Made by a program: the position numbers and the translations under genes. A stretch of DNA of 36,905 bases from an uncultured Bacteroidales bacterium (lineage in GTDB: Bacteria > Bacteroidota > Bacteroidia > Bacteroidales > M50B96): NCBI GenBank assembly GCA_964388245.1, contig CAYLZH010000006.1, forward strand, positions 1 through 36,905, read 5' to 3'. Below, one piece after another: positions 25,429 to 36,591 of this stretch. The notes beneath the pieces were generated by a model that was not told the DNA's origin, did not search any database, and saw nothing but the letters and a program-made list of their open reading frames with translations. How positions within the stretch are numbered: position 1 is the first letter of the stretch; every line of letters begins with the position of its first letter.

Positions 25429-25664
25429 CATTGTACCTTCTTCCAACATCATACAGTTCATAAAACTGAAATCGATAATCATAGTTCATAAATCAAAAAC
25501 AATCCTTCGTTCAACGAAGTTTGGAAACTTTGAGTTTCTCATGTGGTTAATATGACTAGCTACATTTAAAACCGGCAAAAAATAAAATAGTAGTACCGGT
25601 GTTATGTGAATCAACTATTATCTTTTTCAACTATTTTCACCGCTTCATAAATCAGAAAATTAAT

Positions 25665-26030
25665 ATGGAAAAAAGTCATTTTGATTTAATAGGAGAAGAA
25701 AACCTGAAACAGTTGATTGCCGATTTTTATGAAGGTATAAAAACCGACGATGTTTTGCGACCGATGTATCCCGAAGAACTTGAACCTGCCGAAGAACGTC
25801 TGTTCCTGTTTATGATGCAGTTTTTGGGCGGGCCAAAAATTTATCATGAAAAGCGGGGTATGCCACAGCTTCGAAAAAGGCATTTCCCATTTCCGGTCGA
25901 TAAGGATGCCCGTAATCGCTGGATGGACCTGATGAATGCTGCACTGGCAAAAAACAAAATGCCGGAAAGTGAAAAAGAATACTTAGGCGAATATTTTAGC
26001 GAAACGGCTACATTCCTGAAAAACCGATAA
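25665..26030 (+). CDS. Group II truncated haemoglobin (trHbO/GlbO-like)
   Basis: FY (B9-B10), LRPMYP (CD1 Tyr), QFLGGP..Y, LRKRH (proximal His) and G8 Trp in RNRW. ATG at 25665 preferred. Confidence 0.9.
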   Translation: MEKSHFDLIGEENLKQLIADFYEGIKTDDVLRPMYPEELEPAEERLFLFMMQFLGGPKIYHEKRGMPQLRKRHFPFPVDKDARNRWMDLMNAALAKNKMPESEKEYLGEYFSETATFLKNR

Positions 26031-26073
26031 AAGAAAATTGGTGCAGGGTGCATAAAAAATTGCTTTGGTGCTT

Positions 26074-26105
26074 TTTGGTCAGGAAGTATCTGATAGCTAT
26101 ATTTG
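26074..26105 (+). promoter_or_regulatory. Bacteroidota housekeeping promoter of the acyl-CoA dehydrogenase-etfBA unit
   Basis: TTTG (26074-26077), 20-nt spacer, TATATTTG (26098-26105): a perfect consensus match. Confidence 0.7.
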
Positions 26106-26150
26106 TTGAGTTCAAACAAAACACAATCAATAAAATCTAAATCTGATAAT

Positions 26151-27293
26151 ATGAATTTTGAATTTACCGAAGAGCAGATCATGATCCAGCAGGCTGCTCG
26201 CGACTACGCACAACGTGAATTGATAAAAGATGTATTGGAAAGAGATGCAAAAGGCACATTTCCTACCCATCATGTAAAAGCATTGGCCGAACTCGGATTT
26301 TTGGGTATGTTGGTTGCACCCGAATATGATGGCGGCGGAATGGATACGGTATCGTATGTATTGGCGATGGAGGAAATATCGAAGGTAGATTCATCAGTTA
26401 GTGTGATTATGTCGGTGAATAATTCATTGGTATGCTATGGCCTGGAGAGCTTTGGCACTGAAGAACAAAAAGAAAAATATCTTAAACCCTTGGCCAGGGG
26501 CGATAAAATCGGTGCCTTTCTTTTATCCGAACCTGAAGCCGGCTCCGATGCTACAAGTCAGCGTACCTTAGCTGAAGATAAAGGCGATTATTATTTGCTT
26601 AACGGAACAAAAAACTGGATATCGAATGCCAACTCGGCAGGAACTTACCTGGTAATAGCACAAACTCATCCTGAGAAAAAACACCGTGGAATCAATTGTC
26701 TGATTGTTGACCGGAATGCCGAAGGTGTTTCCATCGGACCTCATGAAGATAAAATGGGAATGCGTAGCTCCGATACACACTCGGTAATGTTTACCGACGT
26801 TAAAGTACCGAAAGAAAACCGGATTGGAGTGGATGGTTTTGGGTTTAAGTTCGCCATGAAAACCCTCGACGGAGGCCGGATAGGTATTGCATCACAAGCC
26901 CTTGGGATCGCATCGGGAGCATTCGAACGCGCTGTTCAATATGCAAGGGAACGTAAAGCTTTCGGAACCGAAATAATCAATCATCAGGTTATCGCATTTA
27001 AACTGGCCGATATGGCTGTAAAGATTGAAAATGCCCGAAACCTTTGCCTAAAAGCAGCATGGCACAAAGACCAGGGAAAACCTTATGGTTTACTAAGTGC
27101 AATGGCAAAACAATATGCGGCTGACATTTCAATGGAGGTAACCACAGAAGCAGTTCAGGTACTTGGAGGCTATGGCTATGTGAAAGAGTATCATGTGGAA
27201 CGCCTTATGCGTGAAGCAAAATTAACACAGATTTATGAAGGGACTTCCGAAATTCAAAAAATTGTAATTTCGCGATCTTTAATTAATGACTAA
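26151..27293 (+). CDS. Short-chain acyl-CoA dehydrogenase (butyryl-CoA dehydrogenase-like)
   Basis: LSEPEAGSDA, GTKNWISN, GRIGIASQALG, GGYGY and IYEGTSEIQ (catalytic Glu). ATG at 26151 preferred. Confidence 0.93.
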   Translation: MNFEFTEEQIMIQQAARDYAQRELIKDVLERDAKGTFPTHHVKALAELGFLGMLVAPEYDGGGMDTVSYVLAMEEISKVDSSVSVIMSVNNSLVCYGLESFGTEEQKEKYLKPLARGDKIGAFLLSEPEAGSDATSQRTLAEDKGDYYLLNGTKNWISNANSAGTYLVIAQTHPEKKHRGINCLIVDRNAEGVSIGPHEDKMGMRSSDTHSVMFTDVKVPKENRIGVDGFGFKFAMKTLDGGRIGIASQALGIASGAFERAVQYARERKAFGTEIINHQVIAFKLADMAVKIENARNLCLKAAWHKDQGKPYGLLSAMAKQYAADISMEVTTEAVQVLGGYGYVKEYHVERLMREAKLTQIYEGTSEIQKIVISRSLIND

Positions 27294-27316
27294 GTTTAAC
27301 AAGAAGATTTATATTT

Positions 27317-28066
27317 ATGAAGATTTTAGTGTGTATCAGTAATGTACCCGACACTACAACGAAAATCAAACTGGTTGATAACAATAGTGGATACGACAAA
27401 ACCGGTATCCAATGGATAATAAATCCATGGGACGAGCTTGCACTTACAAGAGCCTTACAACTTAAGGAAGAAGCAGGCAGCCCGATCGAGAAAATTACTG
27501 TTGTTAATGTAGGGACAAAAGAAACCGAGCCAACATTACGAAAAGCTCTGGCAGTAGGTGCCGACGATGCCATTCGTGTCGACTCCGAAGCAAAAGATGC
27601 CTATTTTGTTGCAGGCCAGATTGCCGAAGTTGTAAAAACCAATGGTTACGATATCATCCTTTGTGGTATAGAATCAAGCGACTACAATGGGGCTGCAGTA
27701 GGTGGTATGTTATCAGAGATTCTCGAGATGCCATCAGTATCCTCTGTCTCCGGTCTTTTCATCGAAGATGGCAAGGTAAAACTTAACCGTGAAATCGATG
27801 GTGGATCAGAAGTAATGACTACTCAGGTTCCCTTTGTGGGAATTGTCCAGAAAGGAATTGCCATTGATCCAAGGATCCCGGCCATGCGGGGAATTATGAT
27901 GGCACGTAAAAAACCACTTGTTGTGGTACCACCAGCAGGTATCGAAGCCTTGACTGAATACATCGATTACGAAATGCCTCAGGCAAAATCGGCCTGTAAA
28001 ATGATCGACGAAGAGAATGCTGGCGACATTATCAGGTTATTGCACGAAGAAGCAAAGGCGTTGTAA
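27317..28066 (+). CDS. etfB: Electron transfer flavoprotein beta subunit
   Basis: ILVCISNVPD, INPWDELAL, RKALAVGAD and PRIPAMRGIM. Confidence 0.93.
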   Translation: MKILVCISNVPDTTTKIKLVDNNSGYDKTGIQWIINPWDELALTRALQLKEEAGSPIEKITVVNVGTKETEPTLRKALAVGADDAIRVDSEAKDAYFVAGQIAEVVKTNGYDIILCGIESSDYNGAAVGGMLSEILEMPSVSSVSGLFIEDGKVKLNREIDGGSEVMTTQVPFVGIVQKGIAIDPRIPAMRGIMMARKKPLVVVPPAGIEALTEYIDYEMPQAKSACKMIDEENAGDIIRLLHEEAKAL

Positions 28067-28155
28067 ATGATAAATGATTATTGTTTATTAAATGACTATA
28101 TATTAACAGTAACGATAATCAGCAAAATAGAAATATCATAGATAAAATTAAAAAT

Positions 28156-29121
28156 ATGTCAGTTTTAGTATATACAGAAAATTGGGATGGAAAATTCAAA
28201 AAGTTAAGTTTTGAATTATTATCCTACGCAAGTGAAATAGCTGCCCAAACAAACAACGAGGTAGTAGCCCTGTCGATTGGACAGGTTGAAGATGAGGAGT
28301 TAAAGCAATTGGGTAATTATGGTGCATCAAAAATAATTTCGGTTGATAACTATACCGGACGACTCGATAATCAGGTGTTTTCATCGATCATTTCTCAGGT
28401 TGTGGAAAAAGAAGGTGCAAAAATTATTGTCCTCTCCGATAATTTTACAGGAAAAGCGCTGGCACCGCGAATATCAGCAAAATTAAAAGCAGGATTTGTA
28501 AGTGGTGCTGTTGCCCTACCAGCATCATTCGATCCCTTTATTGTGAAGAAAAAGGCCTTTACAGGTAAAACTTTTGTTCATGTTAAGGTTAATTCTGATA
28601 TTAAAGTTATCAGCCTTACAGGTAATTCTGCTGAAATTAAAGAAACCGGAAATAATGCACAAATTGAAAAATTGGCTGCAACTATTCCTGATTCACAAAC
28701 CAAGGTTCAGGAAGTTAACAAATTAACCGGAAGGATTTTACTTACCGATGCCGAGATAGTTGTATCAGGCGGGCGAGGATTGAAGAGTGCTGACAACTGG
28801 GGACCGTTGGAGGAATTTGCCGAAGTATTAGGCGCCGGTACAGCTTGTTCACGACCTGTATCTGATGAAGGATGGCGGCCACATCATGAGCATGTCGGAC
28901 AAACTGGAAAAATCATTGCACCAAATCTATATTTTGCTTTGGGAATATCAGGGGCTATCCAGCATGTTGCTGGCGTAAGCGGATCGAAGTTTTTAGTAGC
29001 CGTGAATAAGGACCCGGAAGCACCGGTTTTCGAAGTTGCCGATTATGGTGTTGTGGGTGATGTACAAAAAATATTACCTCAATTTATCGAAGCAGCCAAA
29101 GAATTAAAAGCGAATACATAG
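28156..29121 (+). CDS. etfA: Electron transfer flavoprotein alpha subunit
   Basis: [24 protein letters not shown] and NKDPEAP. Confidence 0.95.
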
Positions 29122-29190
29122 ATTAATGAATTGCATTACACCCTTTCATTAGAATTGCAATACACGAAATTATTATCATAAAATTTTCAG

Positions 29191-29224
29191 AAGCCCGGAA
29201 ATCAATAATCCGGGCTTTTGTTTT
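29191..29224 (+). terminator. Intrinsic terminator after etfA
   Basis: Stem AAGCCCGGA/TCCGGGCTT followed by TTGTTTT. Confidence 0.75.
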
Positions 29225-29543
29225 AACTTCAGAATCACAGCCATTTTTCTGAAAATCAGGATCAATCTTTTTCGTCAGTTTCGAAAAATTTTTGGGAATA
29301 TGAAATGTATCAGGATTGATACCCAGACAGAACACCTGTTATTAATATCAATTCTAAATAACAACACTGTGCATCGTCTTATTTCCCTGATCCTTATCAC
29401 AAATAAATATAATTAAAGTCATGTTTTACTGCTGATCCTTCCTATACTTTTATCGGCTGAAATTGATATTAATTATCAGGAAAAATCAGATTCAGATAGA
29501 TGATAATAAAATTTATAATAACCAATTTAAACTAAAATGTAAA

Positions 29544-30008
29544 ATGGCAAAAGTTCAGGAATTAGTTACAAAAATGGCTGATATTCATGGCCGGAAAAGA
29601 GAAAGCTTGATGCCTATACTTCAAGACATTGTTGAAGAAGAAAAGTTCCTCACCAAGGAGGTAATGATTGAAGTTGCCAGACAACTTGATTTGTCGGCAG
29701 CAGATGTTTATGGGACTGCATCATTCTATTCGTTCTTGGAAACAGAAGAAAGAGGCGAATATGTAATTCGTGTCTGCAAATCGATTATTGCCGAAATGAA
29801 AGGCAAGAAAGATATCATCAAAACCCTCGAAGACATACTTAAAGTTAAGGTAGGCGGGACTTCATCATGTAAAAAGTTCACATTGCTCGAAACAAATGAT
29901 ATTGGTTGGAGCGATCATGAACCATCCATGTTAGTAAACGATGTCCCTTATATCGATTTAACACCTGAAAAGGTAATTAAAATTATTGCTGAATACCGTA
30001 GTAAATAA
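29544..30008 (+). CDS. NuoE/HydC-like hydrogenase subunit with degenerate [2Fe-2S] motif
   Basis: LMPILQ..VYGTASFYSF..G.YVIRVC marks a NuoE fold. The expected Cx4C...Cx3C appears as CKSIIA...DIGWS. ATG at 29544 preferred. Confidence 0.85.
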   Translation: MAKVQELVTKMADIHGRKRESLMPILQDIVEEEKFLTKEVMIEVARQLDLSAADVYGTASFYSFLETEERGEYVIRVCKSIIAEMKGKKDIIKTLEDILKVKVGGTSSCKKFTLLETNDIGWSDHEPSMLVNDVPYIDLTPEKVIKIIAEYRSK

Positions 30009-30058: not shown

Positions 30059-31231
30059 ATGAGTAATATAGATAATAGTCTGAACAGAGCTGATGTGATT
30101 TTTGGAGGATACACAACAGAGAAATATAAAGTACTCCAGGAAACATTAAAAAGAACACCTGACGATATCACTCAGGAAATAATCGAATCAGGTATTCGCG
30201 GACGAGGTGGAGCAGGTTTCCCAACAGGTTTGAAATGGAAATTTGCCTCGCAGCAGGAAGCTGATGAAAAATATGTTATCTGCAACGCCGACGAAGGAGA
30301 ACCAGGTACATTTAAGGACCGTGAGATATTGATGAAAGTTCCACGGAAAGTTTTCTCAGGTATGGCTATTTGTGGTCATGTGATTGGTGCTAAAAGGGGA
30401 TTTGTTTACCTACGTGGCGAGTATAAATTCATGTTACCAGACCTGTTTAAAGAAAGGGAAGTTTTTAATGAGTATGCAAAAAAGTTTGGCTTCGATTTCA
30501 CAATCGAATTTTGCCTTGGAAGCGGAGCATATGTTTGTGGTGAAGAAACTGCCCTTATCGAGTCGATGGAAGGCAAGCGCGGTGAGCCAAGAAATAAACC
30601 ACCATTCCCGGTGGTTGAAGGATTCAAGAATAAGCCAACTGTAGTTAATAATGTTGAAACATTTGTAAACGCCAACATGATATGCCGTATCGGGCACGAA
30701 GAATTTAACAAACTTGGTACACAGGATTCACGCGGATCGAAATTATTTTCTGTATCGGGCGATACTCCAAAAGCTGGTGTATTTGAGCTCGAACTGGGGA
30801 TGAAATTATCGGAATTTGTTAAGGAATTTGGCGATGGCGACACAAAAGCAGTTCAGGTAGGAGGTGCTTCCGGATTTTGCGTACCCCGCAAAAAGTTCGA
30901 AGCAACCATTATCGGGTTCGAAGGAATTCCAACCGGAGGTTCAATGATGCTATTCAACAGTACCAGGTCGATGTACAATGTATTGCATAACTATCTCGAC
31001 TTTTTCTGTGAAGAATCATGTGGACAATGTACCCCATGCAGGGTAGGTACCCAGCAATTATTAAAAGGGATCGAAGCAATTAAGAACAATGAAAAGCCCG
31101 AAGATTACCTTACTCAATTGCTTAAGCTTACTGATACCATGAAAATGGCATCGAAATGTGGCTTGGGTCAATCAGTTGCTAATGCCTTTGCTTCGATAGT
31201 TGAGAACTTCACTGAAGAAATGATTTACTAA
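30059..31231 (+). CDS. NuoF/HydB-like NADH/FMN-binding diaphorase subunit (short form)
   Basis: RGRGGAGFPTG, NADEGEPGTFKDR, GAYVCGEE, NNVET and the [4Fe-4S] motif ESCGQCTPCR...C. 390 aa with no extra ferredoxin domains. Confidence 0.92.
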   Translation: MSNIDNSLNRADVIFGGYTTEKYKVLQETLKRTPDDITQEIIESGIRGRGGAGFPTGLKWKFASQQEADEKYVICNADEGEPGTFKDREILMKVPRKVFSGMAICGHVIGAKRGFVYLRGEYKFMLPDLFKEREVFNEYAKKFGFDFTIEFCLGSGAYVCGEETALIESMEGKRGEPRNKPPFPVVEGFKNKPTVVNNVETFVNANMICRIGHEEFNKLGTQDSRGSKLFSVSGDTPKAGVFELELGMKLSEFVKEFGDGDTKAVQVGGASGFCVPRKKFEATIIGFEGIPTGGSMMLFNSTRSMYNVLHNYLDFFCEESCGQCTPCRVGTQQLLKGIEAIKNNEKPEDYLTQLLKLTDTMKMASKCGLGQSVANAFASIVENFTEEMIY

Positions 31232-31261: not shown

Positions 31262-33052
31262 ATGGAAACAAAACAAATAAATCTTACTATAGATGGCATC
31301 CAGGTATCAGTTGACGAAGGTACTTCGATACTTGATGCTGCCAAGAAAATAAATGTTCATATTCCCACACTTTGTCACCACGAAGATTTATGTGTAGCCG
31401 GAAATTGCAGAATTTGCGTCGTTGAAGTTGAAGGACAAAGAACCCTCACTGCATCGTGTGCGACTCCGGCAAACGAAGGAATGGTAATTCTAACCAACAC
31501 AGCTAAAGTAAGGAAAGTACGACGTGATGTTGCTGCCCTTTTGGTGTCGGAACACAATACACAATGTACAACCTGCTACAGGAGTATGAATTGCGAATTG
31601 CAGGAAATTGCATCAGAATATAATGTCGACAACAATATTTACTTAAGTGTACTTAAGGATGATATTGAAATAGATAACTCATCGTGGTCGCTTGAGAAAG
31701 ACGATAGTAAATGTATTCGTTGCCAGCGCTGTGTGCGTACCTGTGCCGAGTTGCAGCACGTAAATGCATTAACAGTTGCCAACAAAGGTGATGAAATGAA
31801 GATTTCGACATTCCTCGGACTTCCAATGAACGAGGTTGTTTGTACTAACTGTGGTCAGTGTATTAACCGTTGTCCAACAGGTGCTCTTACGGAAAGAAGG
31901 TATTTCGATTATCTATGGGAAGCCATTGATGATCCTAAGAAGCATGTGGTTATGAACACTGCTCCATCAGTACGTGTTGCACTTGGCGAAATGTTAGGAT
32001 ATCCTGTTGGAACAAGAGTTACCGGAAAAATGGTTTCGGCAATGAAGAAAATCGGAATGGATTCTGTCCTCGACACCGATTTTACTGCCGACCTTACCAT
32101 TATTGAAGAAGGAACCGAATTACTTGGTCGTTTGAAGAAAGCACTGGTTGATGGCGACACAGAAATAAAACTTCCGTTGTTAACTTCCTGTTCACCTGGC
32201 TGGGTTAAATTCATCGAGCACATGTATCCCGATCATCTCGGACATCTTTCTACATGTAAATCACCTCAGCAAATGTTTGGAGCATTGGCCAAGACCTATT
32301 ATTCAGAAAAGATAGATGTTGAAGCTAAAGATATTATTTCTGTTGCGATAATGCCTTGCGCTGCCAAGAAATTCGAAGCCAACAGGCCAGAAATGAATGA
32401 TAGTGGTTATCAGGATGTTGATGCCGGATTAACAACCCGCGAGCTTGGGCATATGATCAAGCAGGCCGGTATTGATTTTCGTCATCTGGAGGACTCTCCA
32501 TACGATAGCATTATGGGCGAATCGACTGGAGCAGGTGTAATTTTCGGAGCAACCGGTGGTGTTATGGAAGCTGCATTGCGTACTGCATATGAAATTGTTA
32601 CAGGTCGTCCGGTTCCGTTCGAAAATCTAAACATTCTTCCGGTTCGTGGTACTGAAGGTATTAAGGCTGCAAGTATAAAAGTTGAAGATTGTGTTGAAGA
32701 GTGGAAGTTTCTCGAAGGCGCCGAGTTAAAAGTTGCAGTGGCCCATGGTCTGAAAAATGCACGTATAATCATGGATCAGATTGCTGCTGGCGAGTCACCA
32801 TATCACTTTGTCGAGATCATGGCTTGTCCTGGTGGATGTATCGGCGGTGGCGGCCAGCCTATCCCAACAAATGAGGAAATCAGAAAGAAAAGGATAGCTG
32901 CCATTTATGAAGAGGATGAAGGAATGCCTAAGCGTAAGTCCCATGAAAACGAAGAAGTAATGAAACTGTATAAAGAATACCTTGGCGATCCGAATGGCCA
33001 TAAAGCACATGAGTTACTTCATACACATTATAGAAAAAGAAACAGATATTAG
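31262..33052 (+). CDS. hydA: Group A [FeFe]-hydrogenase catalytic subunit
   Basis: H-cluster motifs TSCSPGW, MPCAAKKFE and EIMACPGGCIGGGGQP. N-terminal [2Fe-2S], His-ligated [4Fe-4S] (HNTQCTTC) and 2x[4Fe-4S] (CIRCQRCVRTC, CTNCGQCINRCP). Confidence 0.96.
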   Translation: METKQINLTIDGIQVSVDEGTSILDAAKKINVHIPTLCHHEDLCVAGNCRICVVEVEGQRTLTASCATPANEGMVILTNTAKVRKVRRDVAALLVSEHNTQCTTCYRSMNCELQEIASEYNVDNNIYLSVLKDDIEIDNSSWSLEKDDSKCIRCQRCVRTCAELQHVNALTVANKGDEMKISTFLGLPMNEVVCTNCGQCINRCPTGALTERRYFDYLWEAIDDPKKHVVMNTAPSVRVALGEMLGYPVGTRVTGKMVSAMKKIGMDSVLDTDFTADLTIIEEGTELLGRLKKALVDGDTEIKLPLLTSCSPGWVKFIEHMYPDHLGHLSTCKSPQQMFGALAKTYYSEKIDVEAKDIISVAIMPCAAKKFEANRPEMNDSGYQDVDAGLTTRELGHMIKQAGIDFRHLEDSPYDSIMGESTGAGVIFGATGGVMEAALRTAYEIVTGRPVPFENLNILPVRGTEGIKAASIKVEDCVEEWKFLEGAELKVAVAHGLKNARIIMDQIAAGESPYHFVEIMACPGGCIGGGGQPIPTNEEIRKKRIAAIYEEDEGMPKRKSHENEEVMKLYKEYLGDPNGHKAHELLHTHYRKRNRY

Positions 33053-35640: not shown

Positions 35641-35913
35641 CTATTCCCTGGGTTCATAACCCGGAAGCTCACGATGGGTATGATCGCATGTTGGCAATGT
35701 TTTACTCATTCGGCAATCACACCATTTTACTTCTTGTTTCATCCTGATTTTTGTGGGAATGGGTGCAAAGCCTGTAACGTTATTATGTGAACCGTCGCAA
35801 AACGGATTACTCTTAGTGTGCCCACACGTACAGTAGTAATATTCTCCTGGTTCCATAAGTAAACGTAACGATCTCAGTCCTCTTATTTTTGGTTCGCTTT
35901 TTTCCTTCATCAT
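35641..35913 (-). CDS. CDGSH iron-sulfur domain protein (two motifs)
   Basis: CTCGHTKSNPFCDGSH and CDCRMSKTLPTCDHTH. Confidence 0.9.
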   Translation of the reverse strand: MMKEKSEPKIRGLRSLRLLMEPGEYYYCTCGHTKSNPFCDGSHNNVTGFAPIPTKIRMKQEVKWCDCRMSKTLPTCDHTHRELPGYEPRE

Positions 35914-35928
35914 CTTAGAATTTAAAAA

Positions 35929-36513
35929 TTAAATATGGTCGGAATGGTGGGCCGGATCGACTAATTCACGATATTTGTGAACCACCTTTTTAAAATCTTC
36001 CCAGGCATCCCTTTTAAGTGTCGGATTTCTTAACAAAGCAGAAGGATGAAATGTTGGCATTACATGTCTGTTTTTCCAATTTAACCACGTTCCCCTTACT
36101 TTAGTTATGCGGTCATTAGCATCAATTAATCCTTGTAATGCAGTGGCTCCAAGTAAAATAAGTATTGGTGGATCAATTAATTCGATTTGTTTATAAAGGA
36201 ATGGAATACAGATTTCGCGTTCTTCTGGTGTTGGTGTTCTGTTATCTGGTGGACGGCATTTAACAATATTGCCAATATATGCATGCTCTTTCCGTGTAAA
36301 ACCACAAACAGCCAGGATTTTATCTAACAATTGCCCCGATTTACCTACAAATGGTCTTCCTTGTTGGTCTTCGTAATATCCCGGCCCTTCTCCTATACAC
36401 ATAATTTTTGCATCGGGATTTCCTTCACCGAATACAACATTCGAGCGTGTTTGATGCAGATGGCATTTAGTACATGATAAGGTGTTCAAACGGAGGTTTT
36501 CAAATTCGTTCAT
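35929..36513 (-). CDS. Uracil-DNA glycosylase, family 4
   Basis: CTKC, GEGPG..E...GRPFVGKSG, VKCRPP and HPSALLR. ATG at 36513 preferred over the TTG at 36537. Confidence 0.93.
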   Translation of the reverse strand: MNEFENLRLNTLSCTKCHLHQTRSNVVFGEGNPDAKIMCIGEGPGYYEDQQGRPFVGKSGQLLDKILAVCGFTRKEHAYIGNIVKCRPPDNRTPTPEEREICIPFLYKQIELIDPPILILLGATALQGLIDANDRITKVRGTWLNWKNRHVMPTFHPSALLRNPTLKRDAWEDFKKVVHKYRELVDPAHHSDHI

Positions 36514-36591
36514 AGCTTTAAATTTTGAAAGCCTCAAGATAACGATTTTGAATTGTAAAGTGGATAGATTAATAAAAATAAGGATCGAAAA

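Follow-up and report, generated by a model that had tools for sequence, protein, structure and literature searches.

We analyzed a 36,905-nucleotide stretch of DNA from an uncultured marine Bacteroidales bacterium (GenBank assembly GCA_964388245.1, contig CAYLZH010000006.1; hereafter, the window), which carries adjacent genes for three subunits of an [FeFe] hydrogenase, hydC, hydB, and hydA (Table 1). HydC, a relative of the NuoE subunit of complex I, has lost three of the four cysteines that hold a [2Fe-2S] cluster in this family, and the residues that replace them are maintained by purifying selection across a clade. Its partner HydB is a minimal flavoprotein with the sequence markers of non-bifurcating enzymes. 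We consider it probable that hydCBA encodes a non-bifurcating NADH-dependent [FeFe] hydrogenase in which HydC is a redox-silent, structural subunit.

The HydC translation begins with MAKVQ, a start site shared by homologues of 150-155 amino acids. Residues 10-152 match PF01257 over profile positions 3-145 of 145 (E = 5.6e-36; 124 bits, cut-off 24.8). The best relatives among solved structures were the HydC of T. kivui (8a6t_C, E = 2.9e-23) and also the HydC of the NiFe-HydABCSL enzyme. When HydC is aligned residue by residue with 8a6t_C, VIRVCKSIIAEMKG pairs with VIRVCLGTACHVKG and, in the second loop, ETNDIGWSDHEPSMLVN pairs with RVGCLGACGLAPTVMVN. In this alignment, the first ligand is retained as C78 (nt 29775-29777), while the second, third, and fourth ligand positions are occupied by A83 (nt 29790-29792), D119 (nt 29898-29900), and S123 (nt 29910-29912). 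A preliminary description of the window, made from the DNA letters, had called this gene a NuoE/HydC subunit with an otherwise intact 154-residue frame and only one of the four cysteines; the PF01257 match and the 8a6t_C alignment bear this out. HydC is thus a PF01257 homologue by descent but lacks the C-x4-C ... C-x3-C set, so that by its ligands it is not a [2Fe-2S] ferredoxin.

The pattern at the four ligand positions, C-A-D-S in HydC, is not peculiar to the window. Among its nearest homologues (the best 120 of 1910 homologous protein clusters), 93 were ligand-degenerate, with 92 C-A-D-S and one T-A-D-S, and 27 were C-C-C-C. A scan of species-representative genomes yielded 80 related loci, all labelled as Bacteroidales- or Bacteroidota-type metagenome-assembled genomes except one labelled Clostridiaceae; 16 of these loci were C-A-D-S, one was T-A-D-S, and 63 were C-C-C-C. 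Of the 17 C-A-D-S-type loci, 15 had CKSIIAE as loop 1, the exceptions being L022 (Thr at position 78) and L070 (Val at position 84), and all had NDIGWSD-x-EP as loop 2. The corresponding sequences in the four-Cys sister clade are CKT-I-[ST]-C-[SA] and NCIGWCHKAP. Alanine at the second position cannot act as a ligand, and the remaining cysteine, C78, is Thr in 1/120 of the nearest clusters and 1/80 loci. The sole other cysteine of HydC, C109 in the motif SSCKK, was considered as a spare ligand and ruled out, since 113 of the 120 nearest homologues have Asp at this position and just six have Cys. As predicted from its lost ligands, HydC almost certainly carries no [2Fe-2S] cluster.

To follow the pattern through the order to which the window belongs, we searched 401 evenly sampled genomes with a back-translated N-D-I-G-W-S-D-x-E-P pattern. 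It occurred in 13 of them, including all five from the window's own family, and a reversed-pattern control gave none. The sister pattern, N-C-I-G-W-C-H-x-A-P, was found in nine genomes, none of which came from the window's family. One genome (G087) contained two copies of the C-A-D-S-type pattern, on contigs C8 and C41, one with Ala (GCA) at the variable position. Contigs assembled from public DNA runs of three studies, one of which may be the window's own source, spanned both loops with no differences; the 13 public runs listed included no RNA dataset. Four other NuoE-like proteins encoded in the same genome retain all four cysteines.

Within the C-A-D-S clade, Ala83, Glu84, Asp119, Ser123, Asp124, and Glu126 are near-invariant, and their codons vary synonymously in both loop 1 (A83, E84) and loop 2 (D119, S123, D124, E126). 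The median pairwise ratio of nonsynonymous to synonymous substitution rates (dN/dS) for hydC was 0.073 in the C-A-D-S group (eight pairs with dS of 0.05-1.5) and 0.049 in the four-Cys sisters (137 pairs). The ratio of HydC to HydB divergence was 1.14 in the C-A-D-S clade and 1.17 in the sisters. Since dN/dS is low and the HydC/HydB rate ratio is unchanged, HydC is as constrained as it was before the ligands were lost. The preliminary description had asked whether the substitutions are conserved across a clade under purifying selection, and these counts and ratios (93/120 clusters, 17/80 loci, dN/dS near 0.07) indicate that they are.

HydC relatives at 60-65% identity keep all four cysteines and have the same short HydB and HydA partners. 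Wherever the genes are complete, a short HydB (385-405 amino acids) and then a HydA (~593-618 amino acids) follow in both ligand types. Because these sisters share the partners, the ligand loss occurred inside a Bacteroidales hydCBA lineage and was not inherited from HoxF, the flavoprotein of group 3d hydrogenases. The preliminary description had treated four-Cys orthologues as a sign of strain-specific decay; such sisters do exist, but the C-A-D-S pattern extends over a whole clade and, with identical contigs from three studies, is neither strain-specific decay nor error.

To reconstruct the history of the loss, we built a HydB+HydA tree of 64 rows, after dropping 17 loci in which HydB or HydA was incomplete. 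Fifteen of the 16 C-A-D-S rows formed one clade with 99% support in the Shimodaira-Hasegawa-like approximate likelihood ratio test, and L070 had no resolved position at the base. We also identified three 569-residue HydC-HydB fusions (P0121, P0122, and P0123) that carry the C-A-D-S motif in a HoxF-like architecture and group with L070. Val replaces Glu84 in L070, as it does in two of the three fusions. When the fusions were added and the trait columns removed, the tree contained two C-A-D-S clades in a basal polytomy. A single origin of all 19 C-A-D-S rows, fusions included, was not rejected by the approximately unbiased test (p = 0.589), and the tree constrained to a single origin was better by 2.28 log-likelihood units. 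The simplest reading of these trees is one origin of ligand loss inside a four-Cys Bacteroidales hydCBA lineage.

HydB, whose gene starts 51 nt downstream of hydC in an order that is kept wherever the downstream gene is complete, contains an FMN (flavin mononucleotide)/NADH site and one [4Fe-4S] cluster (Cys321/324/327/367). It lacks the N-terminal [2Fe-2S] and C-terminal 2x[4Fe-4S] domains. The cysteine columns of the [4Fe-4S] cluster are kept in 64/64 rows, and this B1/N3-type set is the only one present. The best solved relative of HydB is H. thermoluteolus HoxF (5xf9_A, E = 1.4e-95). At three sites, HydB has PGTFKDR, GAYVCGEE, and GGASG, where the aligned bifurcating homologues have PGAFMDR, GAFVCGEE, and GGPSG.

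These differences are those that separate a published class of enzymes, [FeFe] hydrogenases that depend on NADH and do not bifurcate (Losey et al., 2017; Losey et al., 2020), from bifurcating ones. The beta subunits of this class contain a smaller number of Fe-S domains, replace A/E and M close to the NADH site by T/S and K/S/A (TmHydB 232/234), carry Tyr for Phe near the FMN (TmHydB 367), and lack GGPSG (Losey et al., 2020). In the supplementary Table S1 of that study, T/K/Y/GGASG betas of ~400-434 amino acids are predicted to be non-bifurcating, and 635-residue Bacteroides betas are listed as A/M/F/GGPSG. HydB agrees with the non-bifurcating description at each point: it has no extra Fe-S domains, T/K, Tyr, and no GGPSG.

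HydA has an N-terminal [2Fe-2S] cluster, a His-ligated [4Fe-4S] cluster, 2x[4Fe-4S], and an H-cluster domain, and all of its cluster cysteine columns are conserved. It scores 859.5 bits against NF040763 (NADH-dependent [FeFe] hydrogenase, group A6; cut-off 765) and 502.7 against TIGR02512 (cut-off 405.95). Its H-cluster motifs L1-L3, TSCSPGW, MPCAAKKFE, and EIMACPGGCIGGGGQP, are those of a group A [FeFe] hydrogenase, and its best solved relatives are T. kivui HydA1 (8a6t_A, 5.1e-181) and 7q4v_A (1.6e-174). In L1 (nt 32183-32203, residues 308-314), Ser takes the place of the usual proton-relay Cys of TSCCP. We considered whether TSCSPGW marks an odd or inactive enzyme and ruled this out: the motif is present in 64/64 HydAs of the family and in A. 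woodii HydA1 (7q4v_A), making it a known natural variant. A literature search on TSCSP returned no relevant paper among the matches listed.

The genome encodes the maturases HydG and HydF, both above their cut-offs, and so maturation of the enzyme is possible. Four further four-Cys NuoE-like genes (on contigs C193, C259, C158, and C105; L001-L004) each lie beside a long HydB-like gene that carries an N-terminal thioredoxin-like Cys motif. In total, the genome has four H-cluster-domain genes; one belongs to a second hydABC-like set, on C193, and another encodes a 420-residue H-domain protein on C158. The second set, in which a HydA adjoins a long HydB and a HydC with four cysteines, lies on a contig other than the window's and fits the bifurcating role.

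To examine how HydC might contact HydB, we used structure prediction. An AlphaFold2 model of HydC kept the NuoE fold, with a mean predicted local distance difference test (pLDDT) score of 84.9, and its top Foldseek matches were NuoE, FdsG, and HydC chains (template modelling scores of 0.63-0.77). The modelled HydC-HydB complex scored 0.92 for ipSAE (interaction prediction score from aligned errors), where the best control scored 0.00, although complexes of this type (NuoEF, HydBC) have already been solved and the score may reflect memory or likeness. Among solved complexes, 116 of 157 attained that mark, as did 2 of 215 mismatched pairs. Across runs, at least 99% of contacts agreed, and the pLDDT of the partner was at least 92. 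The model supports binding of HydC to HydB. The modelled interface takes in HydC residues 80-82, 84-86, and 118-126, and thus both former cluster loops; we infer that HydC is a structural, redox-silent clamp on HydB and that direct formation of the HydB interface is what now keeps the rebuilt loops conserved.

Two HydB positions co-vary with the HydC change. Position 297, in predicted contact with HydC residue 82, is Lys in 45/48 sister rows and Met in 16/16 C-A-D-S rows. Position 105 (nt 30371-30373) is Cys in 16/16 C-A-D-S rows and in the three fusions; in the sisters it is Ala in 47/48 rows and Cys in 1/48. We also considered whether HydB Cys105 partners HydC Cys78, at the interface or at a metal; it is absent from the predicted interface residues.

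We compared HydC with HoxF, whose NuoE-like domain is reported to be cluster-free (Feng et al., 2022), and with other ligand-degenerate relatives. The second loop of H. thermoluteolus HoxF (5xf9_A) reads ...CAGLSDQAP..., so the resemblance to HoxF's cluster-less N-terminal domain that the preliminary description noted is real at the level of the motif. That description had gone on to propose that a split diaphorase of the HoxF type was grafted onto an [FeFe] catalytic subunit. This part was not supported: the nearest relatives of HydC keep four cysteines, and HoxF was not among the 53 matches of HydC in the Protein Data Bank (PDB) at E <= 0.01.

For a wider sample of the family, 1.84 billion representatives were searched, yielding 150 proteins, of which 149 were scored and one of 4551 residues was omitted. 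This predicted protein (P0125) has 23 separate stretches that match HydC (E = 1.5e-46) and may be either repetitive by nature or mis-assembled. All four ligand positions are spanned by 135 of the scored proteins, 112 of which are C-C-C-C and 23 degenerate. Glu precedes the conserved Pro (position 126) in 17/23 degenerate representatives and in 0/112 intact ones, and Asp directly follows the fourth ligand position in 20 of the 23. Many of the degenerate domains are the N-terminal part of NuoE-NuoF fusions; for one of these sample members, P0171 (599 amino acids, N-A-D-N), the best solved relative is H. thermoluteolus HoxF (1.5e-112). On a FastTree phylogeny of 141 rows, a weakly resolved tree from a short alignment, ligand degeneracy required six changes, at least four of them forced by well-supported branches, and Glu126 required five. 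Because loop 2 ends in C-H-K-A-P in the Bacteroidales sisters and in S-D-[QKH]-E-P in the C-A-D-S clade, the clade converged on the same solution as other cluster-free domains. The replacement thus converges, in these alignments, on an S/N-D-Q-E-P signature, and the likeness of HydC to HoxF is better described as convergence from independent origins than as a graft.

The enzyme can be placed among known systems. Like the non-bifurcating enzymes of Losey et al., it combines HydA with NuoF-like and NuoE-like subunits and has a short beta (~390-430 amino acids in that class) with FMN and one [4Fe-4S] cluster and T/K/Y/GG[A/T/S]SG markers. A long-HydB paralogue in the same genome is a further likeness, shared with the "sub-type II" enzymes described in the accessible part of the Hydrogenedentota study. 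It differs in that characterized members of the class are predicted to keep the NuoE-type [2Fe-2S] cluster (two [2Fe-2S] clusters are predicted for S. aciditrophicus HydAB), whereas the Bacteroidales HydC, from a family known from sequence, lacks three of the four ligands. With HoxF (group 3d, H. thermoluteolus 5XF9), it shares a cluster-free NuoE-like fold on a NuoF-like flavoprotein in a non-bifurcating enzyme (as described in the part of Feng et al., 2022 that is accessible), a second loop of the S-D-Q-x-P type, HydB's best solved match, and fused C-A-D-S relatives in the Bacteroidales lineage. In contrast to HoxF, HydC is a separate subunit that serves an [FeFe] HydA and not HoxU/HoxYH, and the complex is not a HoxF-type diaphorase. 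With the complex I subunits NuoE/Nqo2/NDUFV2, HydC shares PF01257, the fold, and the position beside the flavin. Those subunits hold a [2Fe-2S] cluster, N1a, that lies off the main electron path according to the available text of Furlan et al. (2022). They keep four cysteines, as do 112/135 of the full-coverage wider-family representatives, and the window's enzyme has no membrane arm. The bifurcating HydABC/Bfu enzymes (T. maritima, T. kivui, A. woodii; Schut et al., 2022) have homologous A, B, and C subunits; in the portion of that study available, clusters B1-B5 are assigned to BfuB and C1 to BfuC, compared with one cluster in the B subunit of the window's enzyme and none predicted in C.

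The function of the off-pathway [2Fe-2S] cluster is described as unclear for complex I; for bifurcating enzymes, a place on the low-potential branch has been proposed (Furlan et al., 2022; Feng et al., 2022). In the parts of Schut et al. (2022) and Furlan et al. (2022) available, non-bifurcating homologues lack the extra HydB clusters to which C1 of HydC connects. The same two studies, Feng et al. (2022), and the Hydrogenedentota study, each within its accessible portion, treat the extra HydB clusters as needed for bifurcation. They also concur that these clusters are linked to that of HydC and that N1a, the counterpart of the HydC cluster in complex I, does not belong to the main path.

We therefore favor a model in which hydCBA would encode a soluble [FeFe] hydrogenase like Hyd1ABC of Syntrophomonas wolfei, dependent on NADH and non-bifurcating. 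Hydride would pass from NADH to the FMN of HydB, and electrons would move in one-electron steps from FMN through the single HydB [4Fe-4S] cluster and then the four accessory clusters of HydA. At the H-cluster, they would reduce protons in a reversible reaction favored only at low H2 pressure. The minimal FMN-[4Fe-4S]-HydA wire of the preliminary description accords with the cofactor content of HydB. Because HydB lacks the clusters that it would feed, the HydC cluster (the equivalent of N1a/C1) would be a dead end, and one Bacteroidales lineage would have dispensed with it. HydC would be retained as a redox-silent structural subunit, clamped on HydB beside the flavin, with the old cluster pocket rebuilt from Ala83, Glu84, Asp119, Ser123, Asp124, and Glu126 as part of the HydB interface. 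Of this model, our data show the loss of the ligands, its maintenance by purifying selection, the domains of the partner subunits, and the sequence markers; that HydC contains no metal at all and acts structurally, and that the enzyme is specific for NADH and does not bifurcate, we infer.

Several points weigh against this model. The C-A-D-S members are known from sequences and models alone. The near-invariant, carboxylate-rich replacements, together with Cys78 in 17/18 rows, exceed what a plain filler would need, and a site for a cation or another ligand is thus possible. HydA keeps the surface clusters that take ferredoxin electrons in monomeric enzymes, and uncoupled input from ferredoxin may occur. 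The positions of Losey et al. were mapped on HydB by motif context against A. woodii HydB, NfnB, and Stn rather than by alignment with T. maritima HydB. Finally, the A105C change in HydB tracks the HydC change yet lies outside the predicted HydC-HydB interface.

The rebuilt pocket could be a new site for a mononuclear cation (Mg, Ca, Zn, or Fe) with Asp119, Asp124, Glu126, and Glu84, perhaps joined by Ser123 and Cys78, as ligands. Such a metal would lend stability to the interface with HydB or adjust the properties of the nearby flavin, standing in for whatever N1a did. The six near-invariant replacements place four carboxylates on two loops at the predicted HydB interface, and the D-Q-E-P signature recurs in other ligand-degenerate NuoE-like domains through at least four independent changes. 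We nonetheless think a cation site unlikely: Cys78 can be Thr, Glu84 is Val in L070 and in most of the fusions, and lysines 79, 86, and 88, or else HydB, are equally conceivable partners for the carboxylates. Moreover, H. thermoluteolus HoxF has Ala at the position of Glu126, and no metal is reported there in the accessible part of Feng et al. (2022). HydC might instead hold a modified cluster through Cys78 and Asp, Ser, and Glu, in which case the N1a-type center would not be lost; elsewhere among proteins, Asp, Ser, or His can serve as a ligand of an Fe-S cluster. The retention of Cys78 in all but one of the 18 rows is in line with this idea. It would be surprising all the same, as only one thiolate is left and is Thr in two sequences, the second ligand is Ala, C109 is seldom Cys, and the analogous HoxF domain is reported to be free of a cluster (Feng et al., 2022, accessible part).

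A further reading is that electron bifurcation or confurcation persists in this HydABC, with ferredoxin used together with NADH; in its favor, the closest solved relatives of HydA (8a6t_A and 7q4v_A) are the HydAs of bifurcating enzymes. We judge this highly improbable: each domain and cluster regarded as necessary for bifurcation in the cited work is missing from HydB; all three HydB sequence markers are in the non-bifurcating state; and C1, the cluster proposed for the low-potential branch, is gone, while the genome's modules with long HydB-type proteins fit that role. The loss of ligands, and nothing more, would suggest that HydC is a functionless, decaying remnant or an assembly error. This explanation is refuted by the intact frame, the dN/dS of 0.07, the clade-wide pattern, the identical contigs from three studies, and the unchanged rate relative to HydB. 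With the synonymous codon variation at the replaced positions, the same observations rule out sequencing error, chance, and strain-specific decay.

Table 1. Features of the hydCBA region (positions within the window)
Feature	Position	Strand	Remarks
hydC, 154-residue NuoE/HydC-like subunit	29544..30008	+	PF01257; ligand pattern C-A-D-S; predicted cluster-free
Former cluster loop 1, C78-K-S-I-I-A83-E84	29775..29795	+	canonical C-x4-C
Former cluster loop 2, N118-D119-I-G-W-S123-D124-H125-E126-P127	29895..29924	+	canonical C-x3-C-x-x-A-P
hydB, 390-residue minimal NuoF-like flavoprotein	30059..31231	+	PF01512 and PF10589 only
HydB Met297	30947..30949	+	co-varies with the HydC change; predicted contact with HydC residue 82
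hydA, 596-residue [FeFe] hydrogenase catalytic subunit	31262..33052	+	PF02906, PF02256, PF13510, PF10588, PF22117
Terminator-like hairpin (AAGCCCGG, 11 nt, CCGGGCTT, T-run)	29191..29224	+	after etfA; read directly from sequence

Directly upstream of hydCBA, on the same strand, positions 25662-29121 encode a bacterial-like globin, an acyl-CoA dehydrogenase, EtfB, and EtfA. A functional link of the hydrogenase to the last three was rejected. Neither blastp nor tblastn found acyl-CoA dehydrogenase, etfB, or etfA in any of the 80 related loci, where the globin was likewise not found, and a terminator-like hairpin within the 420-nt spacer before hydC divides acd-etfBA from hydCBA. Our terminator scan did not list this hairpin, as its loop is longer than the scan allows. 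In that scan, which also covered sigma-70 promoters, sites were no commoner than in shuffled sequences; Bacteroidetes promoters fall outside it. Matches to a Rex-type operator (TGTTA-N6-TAACA with at most one mismatch) occurred three times in the window, a number reached by 43/100 shuffles, and none lay within 29122-29543. The spacer contains TGTTA...TAACA half-sites at 29337-29363 that are 17 nt apart, which is not the N6 spacing of Rex. Elsewhere, positions 35641-35913 (minus strand) encode a small protein in which two CDGSH motifs (iron-binding zinc finger) occur and which adjoins a uracil-DNA glycosylase family gene (35929-36537, minus strand).

The preliminary description had put hydCBA forward as a possible undescribed enzyme subtype. 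Full-text literature searches, with subscription-only papers and some supplements outside their scope, turned up no description of an [FeFe] hydrogenase whose HydC lacks its cluster, and to that extent the suggestion stands; the non-bifurcating NADH-dependent class itself, however, has been published, as has the precedent of HoxF. New here, relative to the literature found, are the convergent Glu/Asp signature, the fused relatives, and the K297M co-variation at the predicted interface.

What the off-pathway [2Fe-2S] cluster next to the flavin (N1a in complex I, C1 in HydABC) does is still debated. In this lineage, a split NuoE-type subunit has lost three cluster ligands while remaining under strong selection, and precisely where the partner offers no clusters to feed. 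This favors a view in which the cluster is important to bifurcation but not to plain electron flow from NADH to H2. The Glu-before-Pro signature could help annotators to separate cluster-free from cluster-binding NuoE-like domains, and the C-A-D-S clade and its four-Cys sisters, which differ at few residues and have the same partners, offer biochemists a ready comparison. More speculatively, and with low probability in our view, cluster loss in NuoE-like proteins could be a repeatable switch to a defined architecture and no mere erosion: the fourth ligand becomes Ser, Asn, or Ala, followed by Asp-Gln-Glu-Pro, a state that the Bacteroidales HydC would have attained independently of HoxF-type proteins. 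The acidic pocket, at the HydB interface and close to the flavin, may hold a cation or in some other way perform the job of N1a, which would be to govern the flavin radical or the release of nucleotide. If this is true, the C-A-D-S clade and its sisters would be a natural matched pair for uncovering the purpose of the off-pathway cluster.

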